DNA from: a virus
Lineage: Duplodnaviria; Heunggongvirae; Uroviricota; Caudoviricetes
Length of the DNA stretch: 25,775 nt
IMG/VR virus record: IMGVR_UViG_2609459795_000007
Coordinates: 1 to 25,775 of that record
Reading direction: 5' to 3' (one strand)
Below the pieces are notes generated by a model. The model had not been told where the DNA came from and made no database searches. It saw only the letters and a program-made list of their open reading frames with translations. A program made the translations under genes and the position numbers. Below are positions 1,127 to 13,401 of this stretch, one piece after another. Within the stretch, counting starts at the first letter, position 1. Each line of letters begins with the position of its first letter.

Positions 1127-3115
1127 TTAAAAAACATTCTTATCCCCGTGGAAAAAACGTGCAACGTTCAATAGCCAGTCGGGGGTTTTTATTTCATTTG
1201 AATTTGCTAGTATTTCTAAATATTTTTCGCAAAATTCATTTTTTTTTCCTGGTAATTCGAAATAATCCTCAATAGCTTTTTTTTCTGTAATGTTAAGATT
1301 CAAAGCGCCTCCCGATACTGAAGACTCCATTAACTGTGGGGTTTCCATAAAGGACAAACTAGTTTCTCCTTTAGTGTAAAGCATTTTCAGAGTTTCTACG
1401 TAGAAATCAGCATTAAGAGACTGCTCAATTTCTGTAGGTGGATAAACTCGATCATCAGTAACTTTAACAAGGCTTATATTAGATAAGTCTTTATCGAGCA
1501 AGAGTCTTCTTATTTTTATACTTGGTATTGTATCTGTAGCATCATATGGACTATATTTGTGATCTGTATCTAATAATAATAATACTTTTCCTGAGATTGT
1601 TGCTTTGCGATCCTCTAACGCCATAACGAGTAAATTATATATTTTTTTTACTGTAGGGGAGCCACCGACGGATAAAACTATTAGTTTCTCAATGTTTTCA
1701 TAATCCAAGTGAGCGGAAATATATTTTCTATCAGTTTTTCCTTCGCACAATATCCAGTTATAATTATTTCCAGATGTTATTGAATAAACAATTGATTGTG
1801 CTAAGTCGTGATTGCTTTTCATTTCTAAAACGTCAAGGTAAGAGCCATTTGACTCTTTTGCTAGTTCCTTTAATTCATCCTTGTAGTTTTCCAGATCGAG
1901 TGCTTTGATGTATGTTTGAGAGGGGGAAATATATATGGCTGTACCTGAGCCTGTAACAGGTAAAAAACCATACCAATGAGTTGTACAAATAGTCTGTATG
2001 CCTAGGTCGCTAATTTTTTTTATTTTATCAAATTGATTAAAACATGATGTGGCATGTAAGGATAATTCAGGTTCATCAACAGCAAGAATTGTTGAGTGCT
2101 GAGATTTTTGTGGATTATGTTTTAAGAAATTGGTAGCAAGATCTAGCAATGCTTTTCTTTTTTCTCCTGAGCTTAAATTTTGCACAGGGGTCTCTTTATT
2201 AACATCATCAATATGATGTAATATTTTATCACTAAAATATGATTCAATTATTTTAGATATCATATGACGTTGAGTGAAACTATTTTGTCGCTGAGATGGT
2301 TTTTTAAATTGATATCGCCCCTCAAGCTTTGTAGTTAATTGTCTAATAAAATCATTTAAGTGCGAATTTATTGCTGTAATATCCTTTTTCTTAATGATTT
2401 TACTGATTTTTTGTTGGAGATTTTCACCTAATAAAGACTGTAATAAATCGCTTTCAATCCTTGAGTATTCGGATGTGGTTATTTCTGCAGGTAGGTAAAT
2501 ATAATTATAGATATCCTTAATTGTTATTAATAGCTTAGGTAGTATATTGTTAAATTGATATTTTTTATTATTCGTCGAACTATTTTCATTTGCGAGATCA
2601 TCAATTTGCAATCGATAATCATCTATAGATTCGAAAATTGACATGTAGGGGCGAGGAATATCATTTGCAGTTTCTTTTATTATCCCAAGGGGAATTAATA
2701 AATATTCATCTGAAGAATATTTGTATTCTAGTTGCTTCCTGTGTGATATAAATTTCTCAGCTATAGGACGTTGCAATGTATTAAAAACATCACTTTCTAT
2801 TTGCCAAGTGATATCGCTTACGATTTCTAATGCTTTGTATAGGGAATTATTTATCTTTAGCTTGTTTTTATTTATTAAATAAATTGGCACAATGAATGGT
2901 TCTCGAGTATCGAAACCTTGACTGCGCGCTTCATTGTTGATATCAAGTCTATTGATATCAGTTTTATTTAGTACAATATCTAATGCTTGTAATATTGAGC
3001 TTTTCCCGACACCATTTTCACCAATGAGCCAAGAGGATTTATTGTTTAAAGTGAGAGGGATATAATGTTGATTTTTGAAATTCTTGAAATTTCGTAAAAT
3101 AACACCAATAATCAT
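1127..3115 (-). CDS. OLD-family ABC-type ATPase with C-terminal Toprim-like domain (P2 Old-like or fused PARIS AriA-AriB-like candidate defence nuclease)
   Basis: 662-aa ORF; N-terminal Walker A GENGVGKSS; signature-like LSSGEKR; Walker B ILAVDEPELSLH; C-terminal ILCEGKTD ... LLLDTD resembling Toprim acidic motifs; strongly AT-rich relative to flanking genes. Confidence 0.7.
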   Translation of the reverse strand: MIIGVILRNFKNFKNQHYIPLTLNNKSSWLIGENGVGKSSILQALDIVLNKTDINRLDINNEARSQGFDTREPFIVPIYLINKNKLKINNSLYKALEIVSDITWQIESDVFNTLQRPIAEKFISHRKQLEYKYSSDEYLLIPLGIIKETANDIPRPYMSIFESIDDYRLQIDDLANENSSTNNKKYQFNNILPKLLITIKDIYNYIYLPAEITTSEYSRIESDLLQSLLGENLQQKISKIIKKKDITAINSHLNDFIRQLTTKLEGRYQFKKPSQRQNSFTQRHMISKIIESYFSDKILHHIDDVNKETPVQNLSSGEKRKALLDLATNFLKHNPQKSQHSTILAVDEPELSLHATSCFNQFDKIKKISDLGIQTICTTHWYGFLPVTGSGTAIYISPSQTYIKALDLENYKDELKELAKESNGSYLDVLEMKSNHDLAQSIVYSITSGNNYNWILCEGKTDRKYISAHLDYENIEKLIVLSVGGSPTVKKIYNLLVMALEDRKATISGKVLLLLDTDHKYSPYDATDTIPSIKIRRLLLDKDLSNISLVKVTDDRVYPPTEIEQSLNADFYVETLKMLYTKGETSLSFMETPQLMESSVSGGALNLNITEKKAIEDYFELPGKKNEFCEKYLEILANSNEIKTPDWLLNVARFFHGDKNVF

Positions 3116-3191: not shown

Positions 3192-3725
3192 CTATTTTTT
3201 TGATTTTGACTCTAGCATTATGCGGTTATTAGGTAACCTCATTAATTCTCGAACAGAATATATACCGTCAATGGCAATCAACCATAACCCATCATCAATC
3301 TCATCCACACCTCGTCTCACGACATAAGTTATATGCTCATGCTCAAGAGCTGAGATATCTTTTAGGTCATTTGGCAATAGTGATAAATCAAAAATTAAAT
3401 AGCCATTATCAATCAGTTTGCCATCGATAATTTTCTCTCTGGTCAGGCTTACAACATGCGATTTTGCATCCACATACATGGGGCCTTCAGCTGCGGATAG
3501 CCAACGAAGTGAAATACCTGTTTCTAACGCACATTGAATTATCCAATCAGCGGGGAATGTATCTCTCATATATCGATTAGCTAACGTGCTTTTAGAAACA
3601 CCAAGATGTTCAGCCAAAGCCTGTCGTGTCGTAAAGCCATAAGCTTCGACTAATCGCTCAATCGCAGCCTTACCACCTTTATTGGGATTTATTTTGATCT
3701 CACTTGGGTACTTTGATGTTGACAT
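3192..3725 (-). CDS. cI: 186 CI-type immunity repressor (HTH N-terminal domain)
   Basis: 177-aa ORF; ...AYGFTTRQALAEHLGVSKSTLANRYMR... helix-turn-helix; divergent from the Apl/CII operon; its start codon overlaps the -35 of the rightward promoter. Confidence 0.8.
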   Translation of the reverse strand: MSTSKYPSEIKINPNKGGKAAIERLVEAYGFTTRQALAEHLGVSKSTLANRYMRDTFPADWIIQCALETGISLRWLSAAEGPMYVDAKSHVVSLTREKIIDGKLIDNGYLIFDLSLLPNDLKDISALEHEHITYVVRRGVDEIDDGLWLIAIDGIYSVRELMRLPNNRIMLESKSKK

Positions 3726-5648: not shown

Positions 5649-5875
5649 TGGCTGATGCAATGGATCTCGTACAGCAGCGCGTTGAAGAAGAACGCCAGCG
5701 TCATATCCGTGCTGCCAGTGCCAAAACGCCGGGCGTGTCCCGCGTGCTTTGCATTGAGTGTGAAGCGCCAATTCCGCCAGCACGCCGCCGTGCCATTCCG
5801 GGTGTGCAGCTTTGCATTACCTGTCAGGAAATCGCAGAGCTGAAAGGCAAACATTACAACGGAGGTGCTGTATGA
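5648..5875 (+). CDS. TraR/DksA-family C4 zinc-finger protein
   Basis: 75-aa ORF with CIEC...(17 aa)...CITC, i.e. CxxC-N17-CxxC spacing typical of TraR/DksA rather than Ogr; translationally coupled to neighbours. Confidence 0.7.
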   Translation: MADAMDLVQQRVEEERQRHIRAASAKTPGVSRVLCIECEAPIPPARRRAIPGVQLCITCQEIAELKGKHYNGGAV

Positions 5876-6729
5876 GCACCATCCTGAAATGGGCGGGAAA
5901 TAAAACCGCCGTAATGTCCGAACTGAAAAAACATCTTCCTGCTGGTCCGCGACTGGTTGAACCTTTCGCGGGTTCCTGTGCTGTGATGATGGAGACGGAT
6001 TATCCGTGCTATCTGGTTGCGGATATTAATCCTGATTTAATCAACCTCTATAAAAAGGTTGCCGCTGATTGTGAATCGTTTATATCTCGCGCCAAAGTTT
6101 TATTTGAGAACGCAAACAGGGAGGTGGCTTATTACAACATAAGGCAGGAGTTTAATTACTCAACTGAAATTACTGATTTCATGAAAGCGGTATATTTCCT
6201 GTATCTCAATCGTCACGGTTACCGTGGGTTATGTCGCTATAACAAGAGCGGGCATTTCAACATTCCCTACGGTAATTATAAAAATCCGTATTTCCCTGAA
6301 AAAGAAATTCGCGCATTTGCAGAGAAAGCCCAGCGAGCAACGTTTATCTGCGCCAGCTTTGATGAAACGCTGGCGATGCTGCAGGTGGGGGATGTGGTGT
6401 ATTGCGATCCGCCTTATGACGGTACGTTTTCCGGTTATCACACTGACGGCTTCACTGAAGATGACCAGTATCACCTGGCATCCGTTCTTGAACATCGGTC
6501 ATCAGAAGGACATCCCGTCATTGTTTCTAACAGTGACACATCCCTGATCCGTTCGCTGTATCGCAATTTTACTCACCACTACATCAAGGCAAAACGCAGC
6601 ATCGGTGTGGCAGCTGGTGATAGTAAATCTGCAACAGAAATCATTGCTGTTTCCGGGGCGCGCTGCTGGGTGGGATTTGATCCTTCGCGTGGCGTAGATA
6701 GTTCTGCTGTGTACGAGGTGCGTGTATGA
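5872..6729 (+). CDS. dam: DNA adenine methyltransferase (Dam family, alpha class)
   Basis: ATG 5872 ([11 protein letters not shown]...), GGAGGTG RBS; motif [13 protein letters not shown] close to E. coli Dam; motif IV DPPY (VYCDPPYDG); start overlaps upstream stop, stop overlaps A start. Confidence 0.85.
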
Positions 6730-9140
6730 GTCATGACGATATGAGCAACTCTAGCGGCTTTAACGAGGCCGCTGCATCATTTTCATGGAACGGCCCGAAA
6801 AAGGCCATTAACCCTTATCTGGACCCGGCGGAATTTGCGCCGGAGTCTGCACTTTCAAACCTGATCACTCTGTATGCTGCCGATAACGAGCAGGAACAAC
6901 TGCGCCGCGAGGCACTGAGTGAGCAGGTCTGGGAGCGTTATTTCTTTAATGAATCCCGTGATCCTGTCCAGCGCGAAATGGAGCAGGATAAGCTCATTAG
7001 CCGCGCAAAGCTTGCGCATGAGCAGCAGCTTTTTAACCCGGACATGGTCATTCTGGCAGATGTCAGCGCCCAGCCTACCCACATCAGCAAGCCGCTGATG
7101 CAACGTATCGAATACTTCAGCAGCCTGGGCAGGCCAAAGGCTTATTCCCGCTATTTGCGTGAGACGATTAAGCCATGTCTGGAGCGACTGGATTGTGTAC
7201 GCGACAGTCAGCTATCCGCTTCTTTCCGTTTTATGGCAAGCCATCAAGGGCTTGAGGGCCTGCTGATCCTGCCTGAAATGAGTCAGGATCAGGTAAAACG
7301 CCTGTCCACCCTAGTAGCTGCGCATATGAGCATGTGCCTTGATGCCGCTTGTGGCGATTTATATGCCACCGATGACGTTAAGCCAGAAGAAATCCGCAAG
7401 ACATGGGAAAAGGTGGCAGCGGAAACCCTGCGACTGGATGTTATCCCGCCTGCGTTTGAGCAACTCCGCCGGAAAAGAAACCGCCGCAAACCCGTGCCCT
7501 ATGAACTCATACCGGGTTCGCTGGCACGTATGCTTTGCGCCGACTGGTGGTATCGAAAATTGTGGAAGATGCGTTGCGAATGGCGGGAAGAGCAGTTGCG
7601 TGCTGTTTGCCTGGTCAGCAAAAAAGCATCTCCCTATGTCAGCTATGAAGCCGTGACGCATAAACGTGAGCAGCGCCGTAAGTCGCTGGAGTTTTTCCGT
7701 TCTCATGAACTGGTGAACGAAGACGGCGACACGCTGGATATGGAAGATGTGGTAAACGCCAGCAGCAGCAACCCGGCACATCGCCGCAATGAGATGATGG
7801 CCTGTGTTAAAGGTCTGGAGCTTATCGCAGAAATGCGTGGTGACTGCGCCGTTTTCTACACTATCACCTGTCCGTCACGTTTCCATTCCACGCTCAACAA
7901 CGGCAGACCCAACCCGACCTGGACAAATGCGACGGTAAGACAAAGCAGCGATTATCTGGTCGGCATGTTTGCTGCATTTCGTAAGGCTATGCACAAAGCC
8001 GGGTTGCGCTGGTATGGCGTGCGGGTGGCTGAGCCGCACCATGACGGTACTGTGCACTGGCATCTCATGTGTTTCATGCGCAAAAAAGACCGCCGCGCCA
8101 TTACTGCATTGTTGCGTAAGTTTGCCATCCGTGAAGACCGCGAGGAACTGGGTAATAACACTGGTCCACGCTTTAAATCTGAGCTGATAAACCCACGCAA
8201 AGGAACACCGACAAGCTACATCGCGAAATACATCAGTAAGAACATTGACGGGCGTGGTCTGGCTGGCGAGATCAGCAAGGAAACGGGTAAATCCCTGCGT
8301 GATAATGCTGAATACGTTAATGCCTGGGCGTCTCTGCATCGTGTTCAGCAATTCCGCTTCTTTGGCATTCCGGGGCGTCAGGCTTACCGTGAACTGCGAT
8401 TGCTGGCTGGTCAGGCGGCAAGGCAACAGGGGGACAAAAAAGCAGGTGCGCCGGTACTGGATAACCCGCGCCTTGATGCCATCCTGGCTGCTGCTGATGC
8501 TGGTTGTTTTGCCACCTACATCATGAAGCAGGGCGGCGTACTGGTTCCCCGCAAATATCACCTTATCAGAACAGCTTATGAAATTAACGAAGAGCCGACT
8601 GCTTATGGCGATCACGGTATTCGTATTTATGGCATCTGGTCACCCATTGTACAGGGCAAGATTTGCACTCATGCAGTGAAGTGGAAAATGGTTCGTAAGG
8701 CCGTTGACGTTCAGGAGGCGGCAGCCGACCAGGGCGCTTGCGCCCCTTGGACTCGTGGCAATAACTGTCCCCTTGCTGAAAATTTGAACCAACAAGGGAA
8801 AGACAAATCAGCTGATGGGGACTCCAGAACGGATATTACCCGTATGAATGACAAGGAGTTGCACAATTACCTGCACAGTATGAGCAAAAAAGAGCGCCGG
8901 GAACTGGCTGCAAGGTTACGCCAGGTGAAACCGAAACGGCGTAAAGACTACAAACAGCGAATTACAGACCATCAGCGACAGCAGCTCGTCTATGAACTGA
9001 AGTCCAGGGGATTTGATGGCAGCGAGAAAGAAGTCGATTTGCTCCTTCGCGGCGGCAGTATTCCGTCAGGAGCAGGCCTGCGTATCTTCTATCGGAACCA
9101 GCGTCTGAAGGAAGATGATAAGTGGCGGAACCTGTATTAA
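6726..9140 (+). CDS. A: Replication initiation endonuclease (P2 gpA family, rolling-circle HUH nickase)
   Basis: 804-aa ORF; HUH-like motif TVHWHLMCF and tyrosine motif [13 protein letters not shown] characteristic of P2 A; position before the cos-proximal region. Confidence 0.9.
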
Positions 9141-9232
9141 TTACGCGGGTTGACAATTCGTGCTCTTAATAATACCAGGCATATCAGGCCGATGAACGTA
9201 AAAAAACGTTTTACATCAGTAAGATTATTATA

Positions 9233-9252
9233 TACTGTAAATATAAACAGTG
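9233..9252 (+). promoter_or_regulatory. LexA operator (SOS box) upstream of the tum/dinI-like operon
   Basis: TACTGTAAATATAAACAGTG: CTGT-N8-ACAG core, 17/20 match to the consensus TACTGTATATATATACAGTA; 40 bp upstream of the ORF starting at 9293. Confidence 0.65.
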
Positions 9253-9292
9253 GTTATGTATACAGTATTGTTTTGGTGTCATAGGAGGAAAG

Positions 9293-9481
9293 ATGCAGGA
9301 CTATTTTTTGGAGTCTTTGAAGCTCCAGCGCATTGATTTTTTTCTTAAGCTTGTAGCGGCTAGTGAGTGTAGTGATGAAGAGAAGGGGCTGGCTCTGCAG
9401 TGGGTTTCTGAATTGACTGATGAACTCATGGCAAAAATCAGAAGCCACGAATACAACCGCTCAATGGATGTCATCAGCTGA
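9293..9481 (+). CDS. Small SOS-controlled protein, possible Tum antirepressor N-terminal-domain equivalent
   Basis: 62-aa ORF with strong RBS (ATAGGAGGAAAG-ATG); immediately downstream of the LexA box and upstream of the DinI-like ORF. Confidence 0.5.
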   Translation: MQDYFLESLKLQRIDFFLKLVAASECSDEEKGLALQWVSELTDELMAKIRSHEYNRSMDVIS

Positions 9482-9491
9482 GGTGACTTTT

Positions 9492-9725
9492 ATGCGCATT
9501 GAAATAATGATCGATAAAGAGCAGAAGATTAGCCAGTCTACCCTGGACGCCCTTGAATCCGAGCTTTACCGCAATCTGCGCCCCCTGTATCCCAAAACGG
9601 TAATTCGCATTCGCAAAGGTAGCTCTAACGGTGTGGAACTAACCGGACTGCAACTGGATGAAGAAAGAAAACAAGTGATGAAAATTATGCAGAAGGTGTG
9701 GGAGGACGACAGCTGGCTGCATTAA
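9492..9725 (+). CDS. DinI-family protein (DinI-like / Tum C-terminal-domain-like)
   Basis: 77-aa ORF MRIEIMIDKEQKISQSTLDALESELYRNL...VWEDDSWLH matches the DinI family pattern (MRIEV...WE..D.W); ATG 9492 after AGGTGA. Confidence 0.75.
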   Translation: MRIEIMIDKEQKISQSTLDALESELYRNLRPLYPKTVIRIRKGSSNGVELTGLQLDEERKQVMKIMQKVWEDDSWLH

Positions 9726-9917
9726 GAAATGTTGCCCCCAGGAGGATTCATTCTGATGGGGGCTAGTTTGGGCAATGAGTGAAATAAGGCGTAAGGTGGG
9801 CGGTTATTTTGATAAGTGATCGTCCGCTTTGTGTCAGAAGCAGAAGTGGGAGTGTCTGAGACTCTCTAAAAGTTGATGATTCACTTACAAAACCATTTTC
9901 CTGATGGATGCTTACAC

Positions 9918-10253
9918 TTACGAATGATCATTCTGTTTAGTCTTCATGAGAAAATCCCGAATCTTTGCCAAGTTTGAATTTTCGGGGATTGAATCCATGT
10001 ACGGATCACGCTCAAACACTAATTGCTCAGATTCAACGAAAGCCTGCCACTCTACTGGGTCTAGCTCAAATCCCATTGCTGTCATATCACTTTCATCTTC
10101 CCCCTCGATCCAGTGGACTAAATAAAACAATTCATCATCAGGAGAATCATCCTCACCATCAACAATATCAACATCGGTTACAGTGATACGTAGGGTGGGA
10201 TCGATTTTTGAGACATAAATTCCTAACTGTGGTATAGGGGGAATATTGTTCAT
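9918..10253 (-). CDS. Strongly acidic small protein of unknown function (candidate DNA-mimic/anti-defence or regulator)
   Basis: 111-aa ORF with AAAAGGAG RBS 6 nt before ATG; about 26 Asp/Glu versus about 7 Lys/Arg by hand count; AT-rich cargo region. Confidence 0.6.
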   Translation of the reverse strand: MNNIPPIPQLGIYVSKIDPTLRITVTDVDIVDGEDDSPDDELFYLVHWIEGEDESDMTAMGFELDPVEWQAFVESEQLVFERDPYMDSIPENSNLAKIRDFLMKTKQNDHS

Positions 10254-10632
10254 GGAAACTCCTTTTATTGGTGTTTGCTATTTGAATAAAAATACGCCAA
10301 ACAGAGTGTTAACTGTGAATATGGAAAGAATCGTTGTAAGTACCCCGCTTAGGTGTCCCATTCTATTTTAGAGGTTCTCGTGCATATGGATTATGTTATC
10401 TGAAAGTTAACTTCCGCTTCCCGTTCACAGCGAACATTCATCTTTGTAAACCCGTATGATCCGTTTTTCAAGTGGCCATTCAGATACGGATTTTCACTTC
10501 CTTGACAGTGCATGACTATGCTGCATGAAATCGCATGATCGATTGAGGATCGTCTTTGCTCAGATCCGCCAGAACTGGCGGGCTTTTGCTCATGTTATGC
10601 ATGTGCATGAAAACCACTGCATAAAGCGGGCA

Positions 10633-10651
10633 GGCGTGGCGGGGATACGAG
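10633..10651 (+). other. Candidate cos site (cohesive-end sequence) of P2/186 type
   Basis: GGCGTGGCGGGGATACGAG followed by GCGCGCGCTGA; the first 13 nt match the 186/P2 cohesive-end sequences as I recall them (GGCG[T/A]GGCGGGGAAAGCA[T/C]); position between gene A region and portal gene as expected. Confidence 0.35.
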
Positions 10652-10743
10652 CGCGCGCTGAACCAGATAGATATATAAATTAAAACAGTTGTTCGGATAA
10701 AGGATTCTTGATAGCTTGAGCTTTTTCCTAAAAGGATTTTCCA

Positions 10744-12303
10744 ATGTCTAAAAACGAAATATCTCAGTTAAGAGATGAACAAGTAGATAACTTGATCATT
10801 TTGTGTGATGAAGCTATGAGGGCTACGCCTGAAAATGTCAAGAGATTCATAGAACCCGCGCCTGGCGTTCTTGCTCAATCGAAAGCCAAGCAGCACAGTT
10901 TGATTTTTGGTAGAAGGGGCTCTGGTAAGTCCTCATTGTTGAGGAAGGTAGTTGCAGATCTAACAATAGATAGAAGACCAATTTCTTTTGTTGATATGGA
11001 GACATTTAAAGGTCATTCATACCCTGATGTCCTAATTAGTGTTCTTATTAAAAGCCTACAAGAATTCGAGGTTTGGTTAGAAACTGCTGCATTAACCCCA
11101 GCTACTAAAACTACTTTTTGGAATCGAATTTTTGGTAGAGCGCCGGAAAGGAAACCTTTCAAAAAAAATCCTACAAATGAGCTTGTCCGTGAGCTCAAAG
11201 GCATCATTCAAGATTTAGAAAATAAACTTTTGCAGCCAGAAGAAATTAATGTGCAAAGAAAGGAAACTTCCACAAGAAGTTTTGAAGCTTCTGGTAATGC
11301 TTCCTTGAAGCAAGGTCCAGTAGATGTAGGAGTGGGAGTTAAAAAAGGAAATACAGGTACCAAAGAAATTAGTGAAGGATATAAATCATTAAAAACTGAA
11401 TACTTACATCAAAATATACTTAAGTTTCAAAGGTTTTTTAACAAACTTTCCGAATTGTCTGAAGGGCCGGCATATTTAATACTTGATGATCTATATCATA
11501 TTAGAAGAAGTGATCAGGCTAAAGTTATTGATTATTTTCATAGGGTTGCCAAAGGAAATGGTTTGTGGTTGAAAATTGGTACTATCAAGCATAGAAGTGA
11601 ATGGTATATTCATACAGATCCTCCTACTGGTGTTAAACTTGGTGATGATGCAAAAGAAATAAATATAGATATTTCTTTGGAAAAATTTGCAACTTTAAAA
11701 CAGTTTATGCAAAAAATACTCACTAATCTAATGGTAGAAACGCCGCCTATCACAGTAAATGGACTATTAAATACGACTGCAGTAGATAGGTTGATTATTG
11801 CTTCGGGTGGTGTTACTAGGGACTTTATTGGGATATTTACTAAAGCTATTAACCATGCGAGAGAAAGAGGGCCAGATCATCCTAGAGGTCCTCGAATTGG
11901 TGCAGAAGATGTGAATCTTGCTACTGGTGAATATGGTGATATCAAGCGTGAAGAATTTAAATTAGATGCTGATGATGATCGTATTGCCTTGGAGGAAGCA
12001 TTCACAAAACTTGTGGCATTTTGTTTGAATGATGCAAAATGTAATATTTTTCTAATTAATCAAAAAATGACTGGCCCTGTCAAGGATGCTATTAACCAGT
12101 TAATTGATTTAAGATTAGTGCATTTAGTCCAGTCTCGGGTCACTTTGAAGAAAGGTGCTGATGGCTTAGTTTTTGAGGCATATATGCTGGATACTAGTCA
12201 ATATACAGCATCTAGAAAAGTTCGAGATCTTAATTTGATTGACTTGAATTCCAAGACATTTAGTGAAGAGATACGTAAGAAAAAACTTCTCTATGAAGGT
12301 TGA
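10744..12303 (+). CDS. Orphan P-loop NTPase (AAA+/STAND-like), candidate single-gene defence protein
   Basis: 519-aa ORF, AAGGA RBS; Walker A GRRGSGKSS (aa 57-65); Walker B-like YLILDDLYH about 190 aa downstream; AT-rich; located between cos-like site and portal gene. Confidence 0.75.
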   Translation: MSKNEISQLRDEQVDNLIILCDEAMRATPENVKRFIEPAPGVLAQSKAKQHSLIFGRRGSGKSSLLRKVVADLTIDRRPISFVDMETFKGHSYPDVLISVLIKSLQEFEVWLETAALTPATKTTFWNRIFGRAPERKPFKKNPTNELVRELKGIIQDLENKLLQPEEINVQRKETSTRSFEASGNASLKQGPVDVGVGVKKGNTGTKEISEGYKSLKTEYLHQNILKFQRFFNKLSELSEGPAYLILDDLYHIRRSDQAKVIDYFHRVAKGNGLWLKIGTIKHRSEWYIHTDPPTGVKLGDDAKEINIDISLEKFATLKQFMQKILTNLMVETPPITVNGLLNTTAVDRLIIASGGVTRDFIGIFTKAINHARERGPDHPRGPRIGAEDVNLATGEYGDIKREEFKLDADDDRIALEEAFTKLVAFCLNDAKCNIFLINQKMTGPVKDAINQLIDLRLVHLVQSRVTLKKGADGLVFEAYMLDTSQYTASRKVRDLNLIDLNSKTFSEEIRKKKLLYEG

Positions 12304-12313
12304 GATAATTAGA

Positions 12314-12333
12314 AGAGGCGCTCTAGCGCCTCT
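12314..12333. terminator. Bidirectional intrinsic terminator-like hairpin between the convergent NTPase and portal genes
   Basis: Perfect 8-bp stem agaggcgc/gcgcctct with 4-nt loop tcta; T/A-rich flanks on both sides. Confidence 0.5.
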
Positions 12334-12375
12334 TTAGATTACTAATGTTTTATGGTTATTTTAATTTTAAGGTGA

Positions 12376-13401
12376 CTATAAAACATAATCTTTAAAGCGA
12401 ACTATTTCATCACTTACCCATGTGTTTACCTCCTCAAGCCTTTTTTGTAAAGGAATAAGTTCATTACGAACAAAGACCAAGCTCGCTTTTTCCACATCCC
12501 CAAAACCCCCAACATTATTTGGCATTATCCCCATCATCTGAGGCGGTACGCGGTGCGCAGCCATCATGTCATCGCGGCTGACATTTTTGATATTCAGAAA
12601 CTCATCCTTCGCCGCGACCTCTGACAACGGGATAATCTGAAGCCCGTCCTTTTTGCCGTTAGGTGAGTACATAAACAGGTTGCGGAAGTTACCCGGTCCT
12701 TTGGCACTTTTCATCGCGTTGCGGAGGTTGTTCACGTCCTCCTGGTTCTGCGCGGCATCGGTCATGTACATGATGAAGCCTGCGTGACTGCCGTTAATGT
12801 AATACTTGCGACGGAACAGCGTGGCGGACTCATTGAGCAGGGCTGACGGAATAGCAGAAAGATAACCGGGCAGGCCGTAGATCTCCTGGTTGATGTCCGG
12901 TTCCATCAGATGAAAGATGCTGCCTTTCGTGAACTGATATGGCTGCGTGGTCATACCGTATTGCACAAACCAGTAGGTATCCAGGTCTAACCCGCGTCGG
13001 GTGTATTTTGCCAAGGCAGATTCAAGGGCGATAACTTCACCGAAGCGGTTCGTGCGTTTCTCCAGGTAGGCGTTACCAAATACCAGATAGTCCTGCACAA
13101 AACGCGAAAAAGCCTGCTGGCTGAGCAGCGGGTGAGGGATGTAGGTGCTGGTCAGAATGTTGCACTTTACTGCAATCGGGGAACTATGATGAACGGCAGC
13201 GCGGAAGGTGCGCGCCAGTCCGTCAAAGCTGACGGGCGGCTCATACCAGCGGTCCATCTGTACGCATTCCACATAATCCAGCAGTTCTCGGCGGTCCAGA
13301 ACAGGAACGGGATCGCCGAAGCTGAATGCTTCGGCTGTAGTTTGACTTTTAAGCTGGATCTGTTTCGTCGCCGCAGCGCGGTTCTTCTTACTCTTTCCCA
13401 T
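12376..13401 (-). CDS. Q: Portal protein (P2 gpQ family)
   Basis: 341-aa ORF from ATG (complement of 13399-13401) overlapping the terminase stop (ATGA); size and order Q-P divergent from O as in P2. Confidence 0.85.
   Translation of the reverse strand: MGKSKKNRAAATKQIQLKSQTTAEAFSFGDPVPVLDRRELLDYVECVQMDRWYEPPVSFDGLARTFRAAVHHSSPIAVKCNILTSTYIPHPLLSQQAFSRFVQDYLVFGNAYLEKRTNRFGEVIALESALAKYTRRGLDLDTYWFVQYGMTTQPYQFTKGSIFHLMEPDINQEIYGLPGYLSAIPSALLNESATLFRRKYYINGSHAGFIMYMTDAAQNQEDVNNLRNAMKSAKGPGNFRNLFMYSPNGKKDGLQIIPLSEVAAKDEFLNIKNVSRDDMMAAHRVPPQMMGIMPNNVGGFGDVEKASLVFVRNELIPLQKRLEEVNTWVSDEIVRFKDYVL

Follow-up and report, generated by a model that had tools for sequence, protein, structure and literature searches.

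The window analysed here, a stretch of 25,775 nucleotides, is a P2/186-family prophage, in which the genes for an integrase, a 186-type CI, CII, a Dam-like methylase and the replication protein A precede the module under study, and the portal, terminase and late genes lie 3' of it. The module consists of two small open reading frames, ORF1 and ORF2, that stand behind a LexA box next to gene A. The features considered below are as follows.

3192-3725, minus strand: 186-type CI immunity repressor, which Tum presumably targets (Phage_CI_repr, 2.2e-30; Phage_CI_C, 3.7e-17).
6726-9140, plus strand: replication gene A (P2 gpA / 186 A; Pfam Phage_GPA, 5.9e-128), the upstream neighbour of the LexA box and tum.
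9210-9215, plus strand: putative -35 hexamer TTTACA of a p95-like SOS promoter, followed by a 17-nt spacer and TACTGT; assigned by analogy with the annotated p95 of 186.
9233-9252, no strand assigned: LexA box 1, TACTGTAAATATAAACAGTG, with three mismatches to the 20-nt consensus; its left arm also serves as the putative -10.
9248-9267, no strand assigned: predicted LexA box 2, CAGTGGTTATGTATACAGTA, with five mismatches to the consensus; it overlaps box 1 by 5 nt.
9283-9288, plus strand: Shine-Dalgarno sequence AGGAGG of ORF1, 4 nt 5' of the ATG at 9293 and invariant in relatives.
9293-9481, plus strand: ORF1, tum (tumA-type), 62 aa, LexA-controlled antirepressor (phrog_698, 5.9e-38; identity to the tum of DuoHS).
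9480-9485, plus strand: Shine-Dalgarno sequence GAGGTG of ORF2, overlapping the stop of ORF1, which makes a coupled two-gene junction.
9492-9725, plus strand: ORF2, DinI-family gene (tumB-type), 77 aa (Pfam DinI, PF06183, 6.6e-23).
9734-9763, plus strand: G+C-rich hairpin 3' of ORF2, with a 7-bp GCCCCCA/UGGGGGC stem in the RNA fold.

The LexA box, the 62-aa ORF, the 10-nt gap and the 77-aa DinI-family ORF lie exactly at the coordinates given in the original prediction, which was made from the letters of the DNA. The order gene A, LexA box, tum is common to 186, PSP3, Fels-2 and DuoHS, and a segment of ~600 bp is 96-97% identical between the window, Fels-2 and dozens of Peduoviridae from Klebsiella, Salmonella and Escherichia, in all of which two genes are annotated. 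The segment 9233-9725 had been proposed to be the prophage induction module, and homology, gene order and the 100% identity of ORF1 to the tum of DuoHS (PMC12055606) bear this out. We hold with high confidence that it is the SOS induction operon, in an intact state, of a prophage resembling Fels-2 (Felsduovirus, P2/186 family), a reading that has direct observations behind it in the anatomy of the locus, its homology, its conservation, the purifying selection on its genes and the identity to a genetically tested tum.

Such a two-gene SOS induction module is already known, as GenBank annotations and the literature give both its arrangement and its function. It explains how prophages of the Fels-2/186 type are awakened by DNA damage, which is relevant to phage release, gene transfer and strain stability, and about a quarter of the complete E. 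coli genomes match the module region, including those of the laboratory strains B, BL21(DE3) and C. What the window adds are modest variations on known themes, namely a double LexA operator and a single Tum that occurs with many types of CI.

A putative promoter and overlapping LexA boxes

The near-consensus LexA box noted in the original prediction stands up well to a count. In the 25.8-kb window, TACTGTAAATATAAACAGTG is the sole site that departs from the 20-nt LexA consensus at three positions or fewer, and no such site occurred in 100 shuffles. The motif CTGT-N8-ACAG is also unique in the window, where 0.2 occurrences are expected. Box 1 is identical in Fels-2 and DuoHS, and its arms are conserved in five genera of Peduoviridae (Felsduovirus, Elveevirus, Gegevirus, Dagavirus and Wadgaonvirus).

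A second, overlapping box at 9248-9267 had been missed in the original prediction. Sites of this grade, with five mismatches, are expected 0.19 times per window. Together, the two boxes form a composite operator (9233-9267) of the colicin type, that is, an overlapping pair of the form CTG-N10-CAGTGG-N8-ACAG. This pattern is present in 75 of the 83 viral loci of the ORF1 type, with invariant arms and with variation confined to the spacer of box 2, and the double operator is retained in the five genera despite the divergence of the flanking sequence. By comparison, only one LexA box is present in each of the 81 loci of the 186 type.

The likeness to colicin operons is close. When 50 nt taken from the operator of Fels-2 were used as a query, 1,108 plasmid records were matched, mostly small mobilizable Col plasmids, in which the matches lie ~40 nt 5' of pore-forming colicin genes and contain 35-bp cores nearly the same as the phage element. 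The colicin operator ACTGTATATAAAACCAGTGGTTATATATACAGTAT and the operator of the window, ACTGTAAATATAAACAGTGGTTATGTATACAGTAT, are equal in their 35-bp architecture and nearly so in sequence. They differ in what they govern, which is a bacteriocin in the former case and a phage antirepressor in the latter. At colicin genes, two LexA dimers are reported to bind the two overlapping boxes (PMC2994835; Lu & Chak 1996 cited there), whereas occupancy by two dimers is a prediction for the window. The likeness of the colicin and phage operators may reflect either shared ancestry or convergence. By analogy, the double operator would hold the Tum of the window more tightly than that of 186 and would release it later.

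The promoter was assigned by analogy with p95 of 186; the consensus scanner called no sigma-70 promoter in 9050-10350. The two layouts are alike, with TTCACA, 18 nt and TACTGT in p95 and TTTACA, 17 nt and TACTGT in the window, and in both cases the left arm of the LexA box serves as the -10 of a LexA-repressed promoter, putatively so in the window. The hexamer TTTACA is kept in Fels-2, SopEPhi, MLG42, phi4.1 and phi12.1.

Tum and its CI partners

ORF1 is 100% identical, in DNA and in protein, to ECHS_RS04495 of E. coli HS, which is the tum gene deleted in frame in prophage DuoHS (Supplementary file 3, PMC12055606). The induction of DuoHS by mitomycin C was abolished by this deletion or by a non-cleavable LexA; tum was needed for the induction of the prophage, and the activation of an SOS reporter was unaffected (PMC12055606). 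The likeness extends to the whole 595-bp module of DuoHS (Nat Microbiol 2025, PMC12055606), which is 97% identical to that of the window, with the DinI-like gene ECHS_RS04500 next to ECHS_RS04495 across the same 10-nt junction. Differences include two spacer positions of box 2 and the downstream cargo genes.

The repressor of the window was said in the original prediction to lack, apparently, a RecA-dependent autocleavage domain. This is confirmed by the domain search, in which Phage_CI_repr and Phage_CI_C were found but an S24 peptidase domain was not. For 186, it has been reported that Tum sequesters or inhibits CI after the LexA-dependent de-repression of p95 (PMC7708051), and that Tum-CI binding blocks the binding of CI to its operators (Shearwin 1998, cited in PMC3121763 and PMC7708051). 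The same course of events may be proposed for the window. In a lysogen, host LexA would sit on the operator 9233-9267, which overlaps the -10 of the p95-like promoter, and would keep it shut. After DNA damage, active RecA would bring about the self-cleavage of LexA, and the operon would be transcribed. The 62-aa Tum would then bind the non-self-cleaving 186-type CI, presumably directly, so that CI would no longer hold the lytic promoter, and with CI inactivated the prophage would enter lytic growth.

In this scheme, ORF2 is a stand-alone DinI paralogue that would be translated from a ribosome-binding site of its own, 10 nt beyond the stop codon of tum. Most likely it would tune the activity of the RecA filament, and with it how long or how strong the SOS signal is; an action on CI is less likely. 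Judging from its relatives, ORF2 would bind RecA filaments and modulate SOS functions; the GenBank note on the C-terminal product of 186 reads 'modulates SOS induction'. How much ORF2 contributes is uncertain, because in the Gifsy prophages deletion of the dinI homologue left induction unchanged (PMC3121763), with no measurable effect.

The CI of the window is 34% identical to 186 CI and 46% identical to DuoHS CI, and its best identity to any CI in the phage collection is 58%. ORF1, for its part, is 97-100% identical to its counterparts in phages whose CI is 39-58% identical. The divergence is unevenly spread over the repressor. Among the CI partners of the Tum type found in the window, the N-terminal domains are 63-85% identical and the C-terminal domains 24-35%, compared with 41% and 27%, respectively, for 186 CI. 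With the N-terminal domain conserved and the C-terminal domain diverged, these comparisons suggest that the DNA-binding domain of CI is what Tum recognises.

We tentatively propose that a near-invariant 62-aa Tum serves many heteroimmune CIs by docking on their N-terminal domain, and that a colicin-type double operator, absent in 186 and PSP3, has been kept in front of it; this may well prove wrong, but it is a serious possibility. In the literature searched, we found no mention of one Tum with many CIs or of a colicin-type double operator on tum. Should both features be functional, Fels-2-like prophages of different immunity that share a cell would induce one another, and their induction would take place at a higher and later SOS threshold than that of 186.

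The same divergence could be read in another way, in which the module is intact and mismatched, mosaic recombination having supplied a CI class that this Tum cannot inactivate, and SOS induction is poor or absent. The ceiling of 58% on the identity of the window's CI to those in the collection, the constancy of ORF1 across phages with such different repressors, the 46% identity to DuoHS CI and the low identity of the C-terminal domains are all in keeping with it. However, the N-terminal domains are far closer among the partners of this Tum type than to that of 186, which fits a conserved docking surface. Moreover, hundreds of prophages carry this near-invariant Tum together with CIs of many types, and it stays under purifying selection, which would hardly be expected if most of these pairings were dead. 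We regard a mismatch in the window as improbable. The preferred reading is that the Tum of the window inactivates the CI of the window. This is a step that we infer, since the genetically tested Tum of DuoHS has a partner CI of only 46% identity to that of the window.

The junction of the two genes

ORF1 ends with TGA at 9479-9481, and after a 10-nt spacer (9482-9491) ORF2 begins in the +1 frame relative to ORF1. The domains of ORF1 and ORF2 are thus not in one frame, as they are in a fused Tum of ~146 aa, and on the strength of the stop, the spacer and the frame the module was filed under the split tumA/tumB type instead of the fused type. ORF2 covers the whole Pfam DinI profile (positions 1-63 of 63; 81.3 bits vs a cut-off of 24.2) and is 41% identical to residues 71-145 of 186 Tum. 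It also aligns from end to end with E. coli DinI (PDB 1GHH, residues 1-77; 2.7e-6), the acidic WEDDSW tail included. A longer, 101-aa version of ORF2 from the ATG at 9420 was rejected; the extension overlaps ORF1 and is impossible wherever a relative has a different frame offset. The idea that 9470-9487 forms a hairpin or attenuator masking the Shine-Dalgarno sequence was not adopted, as its fold has a z-score of only -1.4 and the structure is kept inconsistently in relatives. The hairpin at 9734-9763, with no clear U-tract and a z-score of only -1.6, is possibly a weak counterpart of the t95a terminator of 186, an assignment by analogy to which we attach low confidence.

Was an ancestral tum of ~146 aa broken here by a recent frameshift, such that the two ORFs are remnants and SOS inducibility is lost or changed? 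The original prediction had offered this possibility beside that of naturally separate genes, and had proposed to look for a single-nucleotide indel that restores one frame. Such an indel can be found. The +1 frame is open from ~9414, and a 1-nt deletion in about 9414-9478 would give an ORF of ~143 aa, near the 146 aa of 186 Tum. However, fusability of this kind carries no evolutionary weight, and the comparative evidence points the other way throughout.

First, each of the 82 close loci has the two-gene junction of the window. For either query, the 80 top viral loci are very close relatives, among which those of the ORF1 type are all split and those of the 186 type all fused. Second, the relatives in the five genera have two genes throughout, although the junction itself has diverged, with spacers of 10, 11, 12 or 13 nt, each of the three stop codons (TGA, TAG and TAA) and every frame offset. 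In these relatives, as in the window, ORF2 retains an ATG of its own behind a G-rich Shine-Dalgarno sequence. Both genes are under strong purifying selection among the five genera (dN/dS of 0.03-0.12 for ORF1 and 0.03-0.10 for ORF2, with dS of 0.5-1.3 between lineages). Third, the identical arrangement in DuoHS is inducible in a tum-dependent manner (PMC12055606).

Because close loci are a biased sample, fused forms were also counted, free of this bias, among representatives at 50% identity. When 1.84 billion cluster representatives were searched with a profile, 154 Tum-N-like clusters emerged. For the 150 representatives listed, the median length is 66.5 aa, and a DinI domain is present in only three of them, all of the 186 'MDREL' type. 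Even the N-domain of the 186 type often stands alone, as a 'Tum protein' of 63-67 aa, and in phages of the ESSI-2 type a LexA box and a Tum-like ORF occur without any dinI. A DinI extension is absent from each of the 120 best relatives of ORF1 in the protein database; longer entries among the relatives are artefacts of upstream start codons, which read through the operator.

The split is also on record for well-known phages. The tum of Fels-2 and that of PSP3 are split in two, and the upstream gene of PSP3 carries the antirepressor activity (PMC3121763, citing Bunny et al. 2002 for the split). In Fels-2 (NC_010463), whose DNA in this segment is 96.8% identical, the upstream gene is STM2728, annotated as hypothetical, and the downstream one is STM2726.1, a DinI-family gene described as 'similar to TumB of PSP3'. 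In PSP3 (NC_005340), tumA is annotated as 'similar to 5' end 186 tum; UV induction of prophage' and tumB as 'similar to dinI and 3' end of 186 tum'. Both phages, like the window, have a small upstream ORF of the antirepressor type and a downstream DinI homologue, located after gene A and behind a LexA box. PSP3 differs from the window in that its TumA belongs to another subfamily (phrog_1993; 16% identical to ORF1), in that an in-frame stop and 3 nt separate tumA from tumB, and in its single LexA box.

In 186, by contrast, Tum is one polypeptide of 146 aa, for which internal starts are annotated, including a GTG that yields the DinI-like part alone. The Tum/p95 operon of 186 (Shearwin et al. 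1998; Lamont et al. 1989; both cited in PMC7708051) shares with the window the position after gene A and the 186-type CI partner. It differs in its single LexA box, in orf97, which follows, and in the N-terminus of its Tum, which is only about 19% identical to ORF1. More distant are the dinI-gfoA/gftA operons of the Gifsy prophages (PMC3121763), which are likewise LexA-controlled and combine a small antirepressor with a separate DinI homologue and an uncleaved repressor. Here dinI comes first, the antirepressors are unrelated in sequence, and both phage and repressor are lambdoid.

Separate genes are the ancestral and usual arrangement, and the 146-aa Tum of 186 is a lineage-specific fusion; a suggestion made in PMC3121763 agrees that the 186 fusion is the exception. 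A frameshift in the window is effectively refuted and deserves very little belief, and the loss of inducibility that was thought to follow from it is unsupported. The split layout needs no repair or special explanation.

Relationship of ORF1 to the Tum of 186

Two findings had been named in the original prediction as jointly telling against it, namely that relatives consistently carry two genes and that the 62-aa ORF shows no similarity to the N-terminal domain of Tum. The former is indeed the case. The latter is not, as remote homology is detectable. Residues 7-44 of 186 Tum match positions 7-44 of phrog_698, the family of ORF1, at 2.4e-5 and in register with ORF1, and phrog_8554 is matched by ORF1 and 186 Tum both (1.1e-8 and 1.4e-11). 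ORF1 also matches phrog_1993, the family of PSP3 TumA, at 2e-3. In hhalign, columns 4-43 of the ORF1-type profile are aligned to columns 4-43 of the Tum-N profile with E = 9e-4; the probability is only 23%, since short and shallow profiles were compared. A bridge is provided by the homologue in Cronobacter phage ESSI-2, which is 41% identical to ORF1 and is linked to residues 5-49 of 186 Tum at E = 1e-6 with 33% identity. A cysteine at position 26 and an A-L pair at 34-35 are common to all the Tum members compared.

BLASTP gave no alignment of ORF1 with 186 Tum or PSP3 TumA, nor of the ESSI2_ev015 homologue with 186 Tum, so the homology between ORF1 and Tum rests on profile and transitive evidence. 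Taken together, the profile matches and the bridge indicate that ORF1 and the N-terminal half of 186 Tum are truly homologous, if remotely so. The AF2 model of ORF1 is a plain two-helix antiparallel hairpin (pLDDT 88), for which Foldseek returned no match below E = 0.4 in BFVD. Sequence searches of the PDB found only DinI, for the C-terminal half, and neither a match for the Tum N-domain nor a structure of Tum or of a Tum-CI complex.

One might also take ORF1 for some other small protein induced by SOS, such as a toxin or a host-takeover factor without kinship to Tum, so that the DinI-like part would be all that the module has in common with 186 Tum. This notion would account for the missing BLASTP similarity to Tum and TumA, for the lack of any match among Pfam and PADLOC families and for the generic helical-hairpin fold, but it can be given practically no credence in view of the in-register profile and bridge homology to the N-terminus of Tum, of a position, promoter logic and type of CI partner that are all as in Tum systems, and of the identical DuoHS protein, which is required for induction and leaves the activation of the SOS reporter unaffected (PMC12055606). 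Annotation pipelines could safely give the name Tum or TumA to this 62-aa 'hypothetical protein'.

Constancy of Tum and divergence of CI

The antirepressor Tum, which is encoded by a LexA-controlled gene (9293-9481, plus strand), is 97-100% identical among phages whose CI, the 186-type immunity repressor and presumed Tum target, is just 39-58% identical to the window CI (3192-3725, minus strand). The identity of CI amounts to 63-85% in the N-terminal domain, compared with 24-35% in the C-terminal domain. No close match to the window CI was found in the phage collection, the best one being 58% identical.

In two extracted loci, with coordinates local to each, the replication gene A is followed by a perfect LexA box and a Tum-like ORF of 70-74 aa, namely in ESSI2_ev015 (L004, 1150-1413) and ESSI-2 (L005, 1150-1425). 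The dinI gene is absent from both loci, and the portal gene comes directly after the Tum-like ORF. The occurrence of a LexA box and a Tum-like ORF without dinI therefore indicates that the Tum-like ORF is an autonomous SOS module.

Operator and tum/dinI junction

The tum operator of the window is formed by two overlapping LexA boxes (9233-9267), whereas 186, PSP3 and ESSI-2-type phages have one LexA box each. The double SOS operator of the pore-forming colicin genes on Col plasmids is a near match to this arrangement.

At the tum/dinI junction (9470-9487), the dinI Shine-Dalgarno sequence (GGUGAC) could pair with the final tum codons (GUCAUC). With z = -1.4 the fold falls short of significance, and its conservation across relatives is inconsistent; analogous pairing, involving other sequences, is present in some relatives and hints at translational coupling of tum and dinI. 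In Escherichia phage 500465-1 (CP025900, an unannotated record; 901-1350 of the extracted locus), local frame scrambles occur in both ORFs: ORF1 contains EERGWLCSGVSELT, while ORF2 is truncated at its start. The probable cause of these scrambles is sequencing error, not biology.

Gene content around the module

Genes between integrase and cI, and before gene A
1127-3115, minus strand: ABC-type ATPase, 662 aa, between integrase and cI
5812-6729, plus strand: D12-class Dam-like adenine methyltransferase, 3' end overlapping the gene A start (6726)

The 662-aa ATPase is similar to AriA, OLD, GajA and PtuA (PADLOC AriA, 3.6e-23; Old, 2e-17; Pfam AAA_15), and its gene probably represents cargo for anti-phage defence. 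Its junction with int reaches at least 80% query coverage in only 8 of the 5,426 complete E. coli genomes. The interval from the stop codon of the ATPase gene to a terminator hairpin directly adjacent to the integrase ATG contains an additional LexA-like site, AACTGTATATTTGACCAGTA (1088-1107; CTGT-N8-CCAG, five mismatches). This site could be a chance occurrence, the expectation being 0.19 sites as good as this one per window.

The methyltransferase-gene A arrangement is the same in DuoHS, the E. coli HS prophage with an identical tum, whereas 186 carries the PAPS-reductase-like orf84 instead.

Genes between dinI and the portal gene
9918-10253, minus strand: 111-aa ORF, phrog_17127
10744-12303, plus strand: P-loop ATPase, 519 aa, ORC-CDC6-like (6.5e-10), weak PADLOC mad8

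The contents of this slot differ among prophages, and it is occupied by orf97 in 186 and by STM2726 in Fels-2. Some match to 9100-12400 is found in 1,305 of the 5,426 complete E. coli genomes, and the entire region in just one. Over 9100-10659, the window is 100% identical to a prophage in E. coli B, BL21(DE3), C43(DE3), BLR(DE3) and E. coli C.
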